Assembly (NCBI RefSeq): GCF_028641065.1
Contig: NC_073378.1
Span: 13,578,001 to 13,642,000 of the forward strand
DNA from: Leucoraja erinacea
Lineage: Eukaryota
Direction: 5' to 3'
DNA length: 64,000 nt
A program made the translations under genes and the position numbers. This document shows positions 32,553 to 53,600 of the stretch, piece after piece; position 1 is the first letter of the stretch, and each line of letters begins with the position of its first letter. Under the pieces are notes generated by a model that saw only the letters and a program-made list of their open reading frames with translations, ran no database searches and was not told where the DNA came from.

Positions 32553-32633
32553 TCACACATCCACAGGCCCCAAAGCCCCAGAATCGCTCAGTTTCTTCAA
32601 TCGATTTGCAGCAGTCACTGCATAGTAGTTCTT
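32553..32633 (-). CDS. MYLK4: Terminal coding exon F, calmodulin-binding segment: [26 protein letters not shown]
   Basis: Acceptor tttttatctctgtgtAG; homologous to the skMLCK M13 region [21 protein letters not shown]; TGA at 32553-32555. Confidence 0.92.
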   Translation of the reverse strand, partial: KNYYAVTAANRLKKLSDSGALGPVDV

Positions 32634-35600
32634 CTACACAGAGATAAAAACAAAACAAAATGAGAGTACTGTCTATTCTTTGTCAGATCAACAATTTGAC
32701 AGAAACACCGGAAGAGAAGTTATGCATCATTTCTGATACGAGGATGCCACAAATACAACATGGTTGCAAAAACTTGACAGAAGTGTCTACAGTCTCCAGC
32801 AAAGATTATAGAGGAGCTCCTCTAGGATCTTTGGTCTCCAGGGATGCTGCCCGACCCATTGAGTTACTCCAGCATTTTGTGTTTTTCATTGCCAGAAACC
32901 TGTTGCTCACTATATGTTAAAACAATACGGGTTCGCCAACACACACATTACTTGTTATTTATTGATATTATAAGCAAAAAAAAACATACCATTGTGCAAT
33001 AAAGTACTTTTGGGTTCTGCTTGGGGTAAAGACTGACCAATTCAATCTACTATCAGCTGTTAACATTTGTGATTATTTCTGGATTACACTATTTTGTTAG
33101 TAGCCGTGGAGATGGGTTGTAACCCGGAAATATTCTTGTAGAACTAAGGAAATGCAGATGCTGGATTACACAGAAGGGCACAAAGTGCTGGAATAACTTT
33201 GTGGATCAGGCAGCATCTCTGGAGCGCATGGAGAGGTGTCATTTTGGGTCGGGACCTTTCTTCACCAAAGTCTGAAGAAGGGTCCTGACCCACAATGTCA
33301 CCTATCCATGTTTTTCAGAGATTCTGTCTGACTCACTGAGTTATAACCATATAACCATATAACAATTACAGCATGGAAACAAGCCATCTTGGCCCTTCTA
33401 GTCTGCGCTGAACACTTACTCTCACCTAGTCCCATCTATCTGCACTCAGAACATAACCCTCCATTCCTTTCCCGTCCATATACCTATCCAATATATTTTG
33501 AAGATAAAATTGAACCTGCCTCCACCACTTCCACTGGAAGCTCATTCCACACAGCTACCACTCTCTGAGTAAAGAAGTTCCCCCTCATGTTACCCCTAAA
33601 CCTTTGTCCCTTCATTCTTCAAATCATGTCCCCTTGTTTGAATTGTCCCTACTCTCAATGGGAAAAGCTTATCCATGTCAACTCTGTCTATCCATATAAC
33701 CATATAACAATTACAGCACGGAAACAGGCCATCTCGGCCCTACAAGTCCGTGCCGAACAACTTGTTTCCCTTAGTCCCACATGCCTGCACTCATACCATA
33801 ACCCTCCATACCCTTCTCATCCATATGCCTATCCAATTTATTTTTAAATGATACCAACGAACCTGCCTCCACCACTTCCACTGTAAGCTCATTCCACACC
33901 GCTACCACTCTCTGAGTAAAGAAGTTCCTCCTCATGTTACCCCTAAACTTCTGTCCCTTAATTCTGAAGTCATGTCCTCTTGTTTGAATCTTCCCTATTC
34001 TCAAAGGGAAAAGCTGATCCACATCAACTCTGTCTATCCCTCTCATCATTTTATAGACCTCTATCAAGTCCCCCCTTAACCTTCTGCACTCCAGAGAATA
34101 AAGACCTAAATTATTCAACCTTTCTCTGTAACTTAGTTGTTGAAACCCAGGCAACATTCTAGTAAATCTCCTCTGTACTCTCTCTATTTTGTTGACATCC
34201 TTCCTATAATTGGCGACCAAAATTGTACACCATACTCCAGATTTGGTCTCACCAATGCCTTGTACAATTGTAACATTACATCCCAGCTTCTATACTCAAT
34301 GCTCTGATTTATAAAGGCTAGCATACCAAAAGCTTTCTTTACCACCCTATCTACATGAAATTCCACCTTCAAGGAACTATGCATGGTTATTCCCAGATCC
34401 CTCTGTTCAACTGTATTCTTCAATTCCCTATCATTTACCATGTAGTCCTATTTTGATTTGTCCTGCCAAAGTGTAGCACCTCACATTTATCAGCATTAAA
34501 CTCCATCTGCCATCTTTCAGCCCATTCTTCCAAATGGTCTAAATCACTCTGTAGACTTTGGGAATCCTCTTTATTATCCACAACACCCCCTATCTTGGTA
34601 TCATCTGCATACTTACTAATCCAATTTACCACACCTTCATCCAGATCATTGATGTACATGCCACACAACAAAGGACCCAACACCGATCCCTGAGGAACCC
34701 CACTAGTCACCTGCCTCCAACCCGACAAACAACCATCCACCATTACCCTCTGGCTTCTCCCATTCAGCCACTGTTGAATCCATCTTGCTACTCCTGCATT
34801 TATACCCAACAGTTGAACCTTCTTAACCAACCTTCCATGAGGAACCTTGTCAAAGGCCTTACTAAAGTCCATATAGACAACATCCACTGCTTTACCCTCG
34901 TCAATTTCCCTAGTAACCTCTTCAAAAAATTCAAGAAGATTAGTCAAACATGACCTTCCAGGCACAAATCCATGTTGACTGTTCCTAAACAGATCCTGTT
35001 TATCCAGATGCTTATATATATTATCTCTAAGTATCTTTTCCATTAGTTTTCCCACCACTGAAGTCAAACTAACAAGCCTATAATTGCTAGGTTTACTCTT
35101 AGAACCCTTTTTAAACAATGGAACAACATGCGCAGTACGCCAATCCTCGGGGACTATTCCCGTTTCTAATGACATCTGAAATATTTCTGTCATAGCCCCG
35201 GCTATTTCTGCACTAACTTCCCTCAATGTCCTAGGGAATATCCTGTCAGGACCTGGAGACTTATCCACTTTTATATTTTTCAAAAGTGTCAGTACTTCTT
35301 TTACTTTGAAACTCATAGTATCCATAGCTACTCTACTAGTTTCCATTACCTTACATAATTCAATATAGAAACATAGAAACATAGAAATTAGGTGCAGGAG
35401 TAGGCCATTCGGCCCTTCGAGCATGCACCGCCATTCAATATGATCATGGCTGATCATCCAACTCAGTATCCCGTACCTGCCTTCTTTCCATACCCCCTGA
35501 TCCCCTTAGCCACAAGGGCCACATCTAACTCCCTCTTAAATATAGCCAATGAACTGGCCTCAACTACCCTCTGTGGCAGAGAGTTCCAGAGATTCACCAC

Positions 35601-50600: not shown

Positions 50601-53600
50601 TGGCGGCACCCTATACGTGCCGACTCTTTGTATACTTAGGGAATGGTTTGCAAAACAAATAATTTCACTGTTTAATAATAAAGTACCAATCAATCAATCA
50701 ACTAAAGAAAAAAATCTTGTTAATTTAGGATTAATGTAGTTTCAGAATTAACATTCGAAACTTGCACTCCATAAAACAAATCATAGACTGGCCAATCATC
50801 AACTTAAGTAGTACCTGGGGCCCACAATTAATCTTTTTCCATACCATTACCATAATGGAGAAACCATAGCAAGCCACAATATAAATGAACCTCTATGCCA
50901 TAAATCACTGAGTTATTGATTGCATAAAGAGGGAATCCTAATTCTTACTATAATTTAAAGTATGTTCACACAGAAATAACTTTATTTAATAGTGAAAATT
51001 ATAATTGAAAAATAAAATTCTGCACCTACAGTTAAAATGTTTTACAGATAGAATGAAAACAGTTCTTCAACCTAGGCCAACAAGCGTTCTCTACAGAATG
51101 GGAACTTTTCATGTTAAAGGTCAAACACGCCAAATTTAATTTTGTAAACATGTGGATGACCTGTAATATGATGCAGTAAAACCTGCCCTGCTGAAAAATG
51201 GAAACAGCAGCAATAATGTATCAGTTATAACACGTTGAGCAGCATGCGGGTATCAAGCAACTAATGGTCCTTGACGGTAATATTAGACTGCTTCTACTAT
51301 TTTATTTATGGGTGTCAAGAATGACATCCATAGCTATCACTCATGCAAGGGCAACATGCAGTCGATACAGGACTGAAGGCTAATGCATCAAAAGTGACTT
51401 CACTTGTTTTATGTTAATAAAATAATATTAAATAAATGTTCATATGCATTCCGGCCCATATTCATGAAATACAGAAATTAAATTAGAGTGTTTCTGTATT
51501 TGCATAAATTTTTATAGCTCGTGTAGGCCGGTATGACCTTTAAGGAACGAGGGCATGAGCAACACAACAAGCCAATGTAGAGCTATACTGCTTTCATAAC
51601 ACTGATAAACAAGACAGGGACCTTGTAACCAAGCTTGTAGTGTAGGTTTTGGTCTGACAACCAGGGGTGTTTAAGGGCCTCATTTGCACTTATCCTCCAG
51701 CTAAAGGAAAATAAAAGTAAGGTGACAACAGTTGATACACAGTAGATATTGATGGTATAACAGAGCTACAGGATTTGTGCAAATCCAACATCCCTGGAGT
51801 TGTTAAAGGTGAAATATGCATAAAATCCTGCCAGAATGTTAGGCCAATTCTTCCGATTTTTTAGATTTAATGAAATACCATGCTTTAGTCTTTTAAGTAC
51901 AAATTAATCCAGAAAACGAACTTACATTGGAACAGTAACACATTTTTAACCAAATTTGACAAATCTGACCAAATTTGACTCTGGGGGGGGGGGGGGGGGG
52001 GGGGGGGGGGGGGGGGGGAGTGTGGAGAGATACGTTTTTTTTTTGGCCTTCCATCACAGCAATGTGATGGATGTTTATGTAAATTATGTTGTGTCTTGGG
52101 TCTATTTGTTTGTAATGTATGGCTGCAGAAACGTCATTTCGTTTGGACCTCAAGGGGTCCAAATGACAAATAAATTGTATCTTGTATCTTGTATCTTGTA
52201 TCTATCTTAAATGAGGCTTCAGCTAAGAAATATTTACTACTAATCAAATGAAATGGCAGTGATCATCTCCAATTATATTTCCTTCTGGTAGCTCAGCAGC
52301 AAAGAGGTGGCAAAAGGAATTCAGTTCATTATTGTTAATTGCGGACTATCCCTGGCAGCTTTGATCACGCCCTGCCATCACAAGACATTCGTGACAGAGT
52401 TTGTCCAGAGTTTTGACTTCTTCCTTCACGTATTCAACTGTATTGTGGAATTTGAACGCCATTCTAGCTGTTTTCATTCCATAAATATTGCAGTTGTCTT
52501 TCTTGCTTCTTCCACATGCATCTTTATTTATGAACCCTTACTTATTATTCTTATCTCTTTACAGGAAATGGGAGAAAGGTGGGGAGAAATAGTGAGAGAT
52601 TGAAATGGGGGGGAGAGAGGAATAGAGGATGAGCAATAGTGAAAGGAGAAAGAGGAGGTAGAAGACATAATGGTCTCAATAATTCCTTTTACTTATTATT
52701 GGTCCTTCATGCTCTTAAACATCTTTTTTCATGCTTCATTCAGAAAAGGCATGAGTTGGGATGTAATGTTAAAATTGTACAAGGCATTGGTGAATCCAAT
52801 TCTGGAGTATGGTGTACAATTTTTGTCGCCTAATTAAAGGAAGGATGTCAACAAAATAGAGAGAGTACAGAGGAGATTTACTAGAATGTTGCCTGGATTT
52901 CAGCAACTAAGTTACAGAGAAAGGTTGAACAAGTTAGGGCTTTATTCTCTGGAGCGCAGAAGGTTAAGGGGGGACTTGATAGAGGTTTTTAAAATGATGA
53001 GAGGGATAGACAGAGTTGACGTGGAAAAGCTTTTCCCACTGAGAGTAGGGAAGATTCAAACAAGGGGGACAAGACTTGAGAATTAAGGGACAGAAGTTTA
53101 GGGGTAACATGAGGAGGAACTTCTTTACTCAGAGAGTGGTGGCTGTGTGGAATGAGCTTCCAGTGAAGGTGGTGGAGGCAGGTTCGTTTTTATCATTTAA
53201 AAATAAATTGGATAGTTATATGGACGGGATAGGTATGGAGGGTTATGGTCTGAATGCAGGTGTATGGGTCTAGGGGAGATTATGTGTTCGGCACGGACTA
53301 GAAGGGTCGAGATGGCCTGTTTCCGTGCTGTAATTGTTGTATGGTTATATGGTTATTATATGGTTATATGGACTATTCAATAATGATATTGCTGGTTCAT
53401 CAAACATCCCCATTGATGTCTTGTTCTGTTTATGCTGAACATTAGAGTGAGGATTGCCAGGCTGTGCACATGTTAACACAGCTACCAGTGCCATCATGCC
53501 CTGCTAATGTATAACTATACTTCAGCTGTAATTTTGGAACCAAAATGTCAGCTGTAATCTCTAAAAAGCATGTTGCGGGGATCTGAATTTTGCAAATGTT

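Follow-up and report, generated by a model that had tools for sequence, protein, structure and literature searches.

The window analysed here is the whole 64,000-nucleotide (nt) stretch of Leucoraja erinacea DNA given in Table 1, and its minus strand carries part of one myosin light chain kinase (MLCK) gene, identified below as the skate MYLK4. Seven exons, A, B, C, D, E1, E2 and F, were reconstructed, all of them with AG/GT ends. The Gly codon split after exon D was completed by E1 and by E2 alike, and E1 was found to have a length of 3n+1 and a phase 0 donor (AAG/GTCCCT). A preliminary description of this DNA had placed exons D, E1, E2 and F at the same positions, with D ending in phase 2 and the Gly completed by both following exons, and the exon ends and translations agreed with all of this. 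Its translation of E1 matched as well, but E1 runs three codons further, to 26 residues after the split Gly. A six-frame motif scan of the window revealed no second kinase exon set, neither in the E1-E2 interval nor outside it.

Table 1. Exons and signals of the skate MLCK gene (positions are those of the window unless a contig is given)
Feature	Position	Strand	Description	Basis
Stretch analysed	G000:C2:13578001-13642000		minus strand holds the 3' portion of one MLCK gene	
Exons upstream of A	beyond the window, reaching G000:C2:13748290			
Kinase exon A	63445..63586	minus	142 nt	exon reconstruction
Kinase exon B	58306..58376	minus	71 nt, DFG motif	exon reconstruction
Kinase exon C	56052..56180	minus	129 nt, APE motif	exon reconstruction
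Exon D	55174..55326	minus	153 nt, last shared exon, phase 2 end (GG/GTATGT)	
E1	51622..51700	minus	79-nt frameshifting cassette, MLCK4-type subdomain XI	
E2	40751..40883	minus	133 nt, two frames; after D, subdomain XI, autoinhibitory-type segment and Trp anchor	
E2 shifted frame after E1	40836..40883	minus	15 codons, TAA at 40838-40836	exact end of model P0046
Internal E2 donors	40807..40813	minus	two donors, one following nt 71 (exon end 40813), the other nt 76 (exon end 40808)	
Exon F, coding part	32553..32633	minus	remaining calmodulin-binding-type helix and stop; predicted untranslated in the E1 path	
AATAAA	32034..32039	minus	tentative candidate poly(A) signal 3' of F	motif alone

Six splice paths were assembled from the exons of the window and compared with the stored protein models. 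The D-E2-F path gave exactly the C-terminus of the RefSeq Leucoraja erinacea isoforms X1 and X6 (P0049/P0052), and this message was also supported by a 769-residue protein (P0055) from a single assembled contig of 2795 nt, which ended exactly in A-B-C-D-E2-F. The D-E1-E2 path gave exactly the C-terminus of isoform X3 (P0046), in which the last 15 residues were E2 read one base earlier, and the same protein resulted from the short and from the long donor of E2. The exact C-termini of isoforms X2 (P0050) and X5 (P0051) were reproduced by D-E2(76)-F and D-F, respectively, while D-E1-F, although in frame, equalled none of the stored skate models. Bases 40883-40836 were used in different frames by models P0049 and P0046. 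From this comparison, E1 is a cassette that shifts the frame, and the gene models use E2 in two frames. The preliminary description had taken E1 and E2 for two alternative terminal exons; this did not survive, as E1 has a donor of its own and the annotated E1 isoform continues into E2, so that in the gene models both exons stand in one message and are not mutually exclusive. Whether annotation lists both isoforms had been left as a question, and RefSeq already lists both; they are automated models whose names are inconsistent.

The two ends differed in what follows the kinase. An autoinhibitory-type segment and a 1-5-8-14 motif were present after the kinase in the E2-F isoform, as had been claimed for the D-E2-F join: the E2/F junction matched the calmodulin peptide of skeletal-muscle MLCK (skMLCK) in 2BBM (E 2e-7, 18/25 identical), with the anchors W, Y, V and L in 1-5-8-14 register, and the tail was almost invariant across cartilaginous fish. 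Judging from this likeness, the E2-F form likely binds Ca2+/calmodulin. The best PDB match of the E1 frame was human MLCK4 (2X4F, E 3.7e-8; next match 0.055), and residues 564-867 of the E1 isoform aligned to 2X4F (E 2e-165) through E1 into the tail; an MLCK4-type end without a calmodulin segment was found in this isoform only. Two AlphaFold2 models, with a mean predicted local distance difference test score (pLDDT) of 47.8 and 42.2, were too poor for use. In skMLCK the active site is released by Ca2+/calmodulin, according to the portion consulted of PMC3114093 and to family knowledge, and MLCK4 is described in the text available of PMC9782806 as having a low constitutive activity independent of Ca2+-calmodulin.

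We favour, at a probability of roughly three in four, the reading that the optional E1 toggles skate MYLK4 between an skMLCK-like calmodulin tail and a calmodulin-independent MLCK4-type kinase. When E1 is skipped, the protein would continue through E2-F, with subdomain XI first and then an autoinhibitory-type segment and a calmodulin-type helix, and by analogy with skMLCK the active site would be freed by Ca2+/calmodulin. When E1 is included, the duplicate would supply subdomain XI, and because of the frameshift the protein would stop after 15 residues of E2, leaving F untranslated. The two proteins would thus be expected to differ in calcium dependence. From the gene models and from conservation, both splice paths are predicted to be used. 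The favoured reading also includes the tandem-duplicate origin of E1, the use of an internal E2 donor by the E1 message, the retention of both ends in cartilaginous fish, and the fixation of the E1 path, with decay of the regulated frame, in tetrapods, lungfish and ray-finned fish.

The gene was assigned with trees built on the kinase core, the tail being excluded; a careful tree had 30 rows and a quick one 81 rows, three rows having been dropped as short. The skate core grouped with the named MYLK4 of lungfish, axolotl, turtle, bird and mammals in a 12-row clade of the 30-row tree (support 90/92, unstarred), and in the same grouping of the 81-row tree with a support of 93 in the Shimodaira-Hasegawa-like approximate likelihood ratio test (SH-aLRT). 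Core identity reached 77-83% with named MYLK4, was 75% with MYLK3 and lowest, at 68%, with the MYLK2-like protein of a shark. The sole matches to PF12002 (MgsA_C, WRNIP1-like) lay at C2:13.82-13.83 Mb on the plus strand, about 76 kb past the first exon and on the opposite strand, and the five best matches to PF16363 (GMDS-like) lay at C2:12.80-13.20 Mb. The human order, with MYLK4 between GMDS and WRNIP1, is the same. By the tree and by these neighbours, two of the checks that had been proposed, the gene is the skate MYLK4 orthologue; together with the exon builds they also bear out the claim of a single gene with a regulated-type and an MLCK4-type end. An orthologue of MYLK2 or MYLK3 was ruled out because the core fell outside those clades in both trees, and where databases label the locus MYLK2 or MYLK3, as in annotations of shark, ray and coelacanth, the name is wrong.

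The paralogue on contig C17 grouped with MYLK3. Its layout was D-E2-F without E1, the intron was shorter than 600 nt, and no stop stood at codon 16 of the shifted frame. An inverted partial kinase-exon copy was observed in an intron of this paralogue (L041, G000:C17:2530184-2530288), and a further MLCK-like kinase locus was present at G000:C27:32634813-32649060, with 70% identity to exon C and 51% to exon D. A MYLK2-like protein exists in a shark (Heptranchias); with it as query, no locus of its own was obtained in the skate genome among the 99 of 291 candidates scored, only the MYLK4 and MYLK3 loci, with 76% on exon C. The missing skate MYLK2 may be a loss or an assembly gap, and the idea of the E2-F form as a substitute for a lost MYLK2 was dropped because the absence may be such a gap.

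E1 is likely a duplicate of the first half of E2. The DNA alignment of E1 with the first 76 nt of E2 scored 37, against 9.2 +/- 6.6 (maximum 31) in 1000 shuffles, which marks the two as a homologous exon pair, and no other good copy of E1 was found in genome G000; from this likeness and from the lack of another copy, E1 probably arose when that part of E2 was duplicated in tandem. As such a duplicate, E1 would replace the kinase helix that is lost to the frameshift. Across 122 proteins a mean of 13.2 of its first 17 residues were identical (minimum 9), which points to constraint at the protein level.

Ten GT positions occur in E2, and those after nt 71 and nt 76 fitted the donor consensus best (6/9). 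The nt-71 donor reproduced the RefSeq model P0053 exactly and the nt-76 donor reproduced P0050, and models with these donors were found in 10 and 9 cartilaginous species, respectively. With the three E2 donors (nt 71, nt 76 and the long one) the distance from the shifted-frame stop to the next junction is 23, 28 or 85 nt. Nonsense-mediated decay is taken to follow a rule of 50-55 nt between stop and last junction in the portion available of bioRxiv 10.64898/2026.02.24.707805, and by this rule only the long donor would mark the E1 message for decay. The internal donors are thus inferred to serve the E1 message, which by taking one of them would have 23-28 nt between stop and last junction and escape decay. 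Used after D instead, they would give further proteins without the Trp anchor. The two accessions per E1 protein in three species were considered as a sign of two donors and dropped, since other isoforms also have several accessions.

At least seven of 22 cartilaginous species had an E1 model, and at least six of the 22 had both E1 and E2-F models, namely Leucoraja, Hemitrygon, Stegostoma, two Chiloscyllium and the chimaera Callorhinchus. In six of the seven cartilaginous E1 models exactly 41 residues lay between the Trp of E1 and the stop, while the seventh read into the intron; 37-43 residues were counted from Trp to stop in 100 of 123 E1 proteins. Most amniote rows (88/95) and most of the further bony-vertebrate rows of the MYLK4 clade (21/23) started with E1, and the second half of E2 was retained in none of these 95 and 23 rows (best score 25; self 95). 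For the MYLK2/3 rows, E1 was found in 0/29 and an E2-F-type segment in 29/29. Among the ten coelacanth models E2-F was present in seven and E1 in none; these MYLK4-clade models of Latimeria (P0070, P0071, P0079, P0316-P0322) were labelled MYLK2 or MYLK3 and their F helix was diverged. Since lamprey and Myxine also carried the E2-F-type segment, as did all 29 MYLK2/3 rows, the regulated end is the older state, and the earlier suggestion that the locus may represent the ancestral MYLK4 structure stands in that part.

In an MLCK of the hagfish Eptatretus burgeri (P0212/P0336), an E1-like start with Trp was followed by a short tail that lacked a calmodulin segment. The gene fell outside all three clades and its tail failed the shifted-frame test described below; it could mean that E1 predates the jawed vertebrates, or it could be convergence.

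The tails of the E1 proteins were tested by asking whether any coding of a tail could spell the kinase frame of skate E2 at +1, in comparison with 300 shuffles. The E2 kinase frame was encoded better than in shuffles (p<0.05) by 40 of 52 distinct tails, which are related and so do not amount to 52 independent tests. All five cartilaginous and all five turtle tails gave p=0.003, as did the tail of Ambystoma, and three unnamed rows grouping with Ambystoma also passed. The finch tail KKAKGDCVSQAPLAQ (P0095) and the finch model reading KRLKVTVCLKHPWLN (P0096) were exactly co-encodable over 15 codons, and the same held over 12-15 codons for eight of eight bird and turtle pairs, which were hand-picked and have no null. 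For three bird models the alignment with the skate E2(76)-F tail ran gap-free over the junction of the E2 and F remnants, at the place of the nt-76 donor, and remnants of F outscored shuffles in 7 of the 13 models examined, a squirrel among them (p=0.004). By their sequences, the amphibian, turtle and bird MYLK4 tails are a shifted-frame read of E2, and amniote gene models still contain E2 and F in decayed form; both observations are new here. For mammals, where the test failed, homology is argued from the position and similar length of the tail and from its continuity with reptiles.

Read jointly, these results suggest a history to which we give about even odds. The ancestral jawed-vertebrate MYLK4 would have had a tissue-regulated frameshift switch, made of a duplicated kinase exon and a decay-dodging internal donor, between a Ca2+/calmodulin-gated and a constitutive MLCK. 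Sharks, rays and chimaeras would still use it, with both ends kept in cartilaginous fish, and coelacanth would have kept the gated form only. In ray-finned fish, lungfish and tetrapods, as the favoured reading also holds, the E1 path would have been fixed and the regulated frame would have decayed, so that the end of mammalian MLCK4 would be an off-frame fossil kinase exon, with a fossil calmodulin-binding exon in the 3' untranslated region.

Sequencing reads of four of 24 runs (X1, X2, X22 and X23) were mapped to window positions 40600-55450, where repeat-derived reads dominated; none of the matching runs listed is recorded as RNA, and that run X1 is RNA is a guess. One contig of run X1 covered exactly 55174-55326, ending at the donor of D, and another covered 40751-40884, running from the long E2 donor and passing the acceptor by one base. 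These ends fit branching, but they do not distinguish E1 from unspliced intron. In run X1 the E1 bin had a depth of 1.05, compared with 0 in the neighbouring unique bin, and the E1 bin had no repeat match in the 508 kb compared. Expression of E1 is suggested by this depth.

Several points weigh against the switch and the history built on it. All isoforms are automated models, and E1 models were present in just 7 of the 22 cartilaginous species among the clusters examined and in none of the ten coelacanth models. Cardiac MLCK has such a regulatory segment and yet shows basal activity, so the switch may be graded. The MYLK4 clade was supported at 90/92, unstarred. The long donor leaves 85 nt from stop to junction, more than the 50-55 nt of the decay rule. 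On the reads, no exon-exon joint, D-E1 and E1-E2 included, was present among the 15 of 427 joints listed, all of which lay in repeats; the E1-bin depth was 0 in runs X2 and X22, 0.1 in X23 and 1.05 in X1; the two raw-read runs covered the exon bins at less than 0.4x. As to the tails, 17 of 94 E1 proteins were left out for tail length, none of the four mammalian tails passed, the lungfish and bichir tails failed and only 3 of 11 fish-like tails passed, so that for lungfish, bichir and most fish-like tails homology rests on length and position; the relatedness of the tails and the hand-picking of the pairs count here too.

Other readings of the locus were weighed against the same evidence. E1 might be mainly a poison or minor event in skate, cutting the kinase output through nonsense-mediated decay and serving as a protein-coding end only in bony vertebrates. 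The stop 85 nt before the long donor fits this, as do the absence of E1 models in 15 of the 22 cartilaginous species among the clusters examined and the statement, in the portion available of bioRxiv 10.64898/2026.02.24.707805, that at least one third of human dual-coding regions likely trigger decay. It is nevertheless unlikely, given the protein-level constraint on E1 (13.2 of 17 mean identities, 122 proteins) and the internal donors at most 28 nt after the stop, which were modelled in 9 and 10 cartilaginous species. It is also quite unlikely that E1 and E2 are mutually exclusive after all, with E1 ending the message in its own intron or joining F directly. A Rhincodon model and several amniote models do read from E1 into the intron, an AATAAA stands at 51306, and D-E1-F is in frame, with E1 joined to a remnant of F in four amniote models (P0160, P0118, P0129, P0186). 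But six of the seven cartilaginous E1 models run on into the shifted E2 and none joins F, 100 of the 123 E1 proteins have the 37-43 residues from Trp to stop, and the bin downstream of E1 (51016-51511) had depth 0 in all four runs, where coverage was thin.

Both proteins could also be made and differ in location or substrate, or both could be largely calmodulin-independent. This finds some favour in mouse skeletal muscle, where Mylk4 was tied to the phosphorylation of Myomesin-1 and post-tetanic potentiation stayed unchanged when Mylk4 was lost, according to the text consulted of PMC8041868. We hold it very improbable for skate, where the E2/F helix retains 18 of 25 residues and all four skMLCK anchors in a tail that is nearly invariant in cartilaginous fish. 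That E2 and F come from a separate, mis-joined paralogue, which the preliminary description had named as one thing that would overturn it, is hardly credible: databases do label E2-F proteins as MYLK2 or MYLK3 in several species, but there is no second kinase exon set in the window, P0055 joins A-B-C-D-E2-F in one contig, the MYLK3-type gene sits on C17, and the same layout recurs in other species. The frameshifting E1 switch is thus the reading kept here.

The remaining features of the gene and the window lie outside this switch. Three alternative first coding exons with differing N-termini, common to shark models, were located at G000:C2:13662329-13662961, ~13743190-13743330 and 13748069-13748290 (L017, L025), and the gene therefore also has alternative starts. 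A broken retroelement of the long interspersed nuclear element (LINE) type occupied window positions 34435-37480 on the minus strand in the E2-F intron, with pieces of a GDSL-like ORF1, an endonuclease and a reverse transcriptase (Pfam PF13472, PF03372, PF00078), and the introns were filled by many short copies of the 3' end of that LINE. A repeat-derived open reading frame with a match to the Pfam family ALKBH8_N was present at 27839-28507 on the plus strand, and similar ones recurred in the window.

The predicted skate exon switch likely shows how mammalian MLCK4, the family member independent of calmodulin, lost calcium control, and it offers a testable route for that loss through a fixed frameshifting exon duplication, not through deletion or gene retrocopy. 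It would also be a case in which jawed vertebrates retained a second reading frame that in the end became the main one. The skate gene would also offer a natural kinase pair, identical up to subdomain X, for dissecting the regulatory segment against the short MLCK4 tail, and the MYLK2 and MYLK3 labels can be corrected in the shark, ray and coelacanth annotations. The reach of these results is limited to specialists in muscle kinases and in the evolution of splicing. Two-frame exons are a known class and the annotated isoforms were known; a literature search that covered few subscription journals gave no title that dealt with such a switch or with how the MLCK4 tail arose, and MYLK is not mentioned in the main texts of PMC8373072, PMC13247117 and bioRxiv 10.64898/2026.02.24.707805, whose supplements could list it.

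Mammalian MYLK4/MLCK4 (2X4F) is the orthologue by tree and neighbours, its core is 77-83% identical and the E1 isoform aligns to it, but the amniote rows lack the second half of E2 (0/95); the mouse Mylk4 splice variants described in the text available of PMC8041868 differ at the N-terminus, not in the regulatory tail. MYLK2 (skMLCK) and MYLK3 (cMLCK) share with skate MYLK4 the E2-F-type tail and its 1-5-8-14 motif, and the C17 paralogue shares the exon layout; unlike it, they form separate clades, have cores of 68% and 75% identity and contain E1 in 0/29 rows. As in dual-coding regions, two different upstream exons lead into E2 in two frames, one of which meets a stop within the exon; this architecture is the commonest in human with 405 cases, as far as the portion consulted of bioRxiv 10.64898/2026.02.24.707805 reports. 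Unlike in those regions, the shifted frame of MYLK4 appears to be the sole one used in most bony vertebrates, and at 45 nt it is below the 60-nt dual-coding cut-off given in the text available of PMC13247117, which would place it in the class of isoforms with alternative C-terminal length. Homologous duplicated exons that give alternative homologous segments are also found among the substitutions derived from tandem exon duplication in PMC8373072, where, in the part consulted, either exon is used, whereas skate MYLK4 has both in one message. The closest precedent for splicing away calmodulin control, as described in the part available of PMC3050894, is DRP-1beta, the DAPK2 splice isoform, in which a kinase of the calmodulin family sheds its calmodulin-regulatory domain by conserved alternative splicing; skate MYLK4 differs in using a duplicated kinase exon to frameshift the next exon, which is shared by both isoforms.

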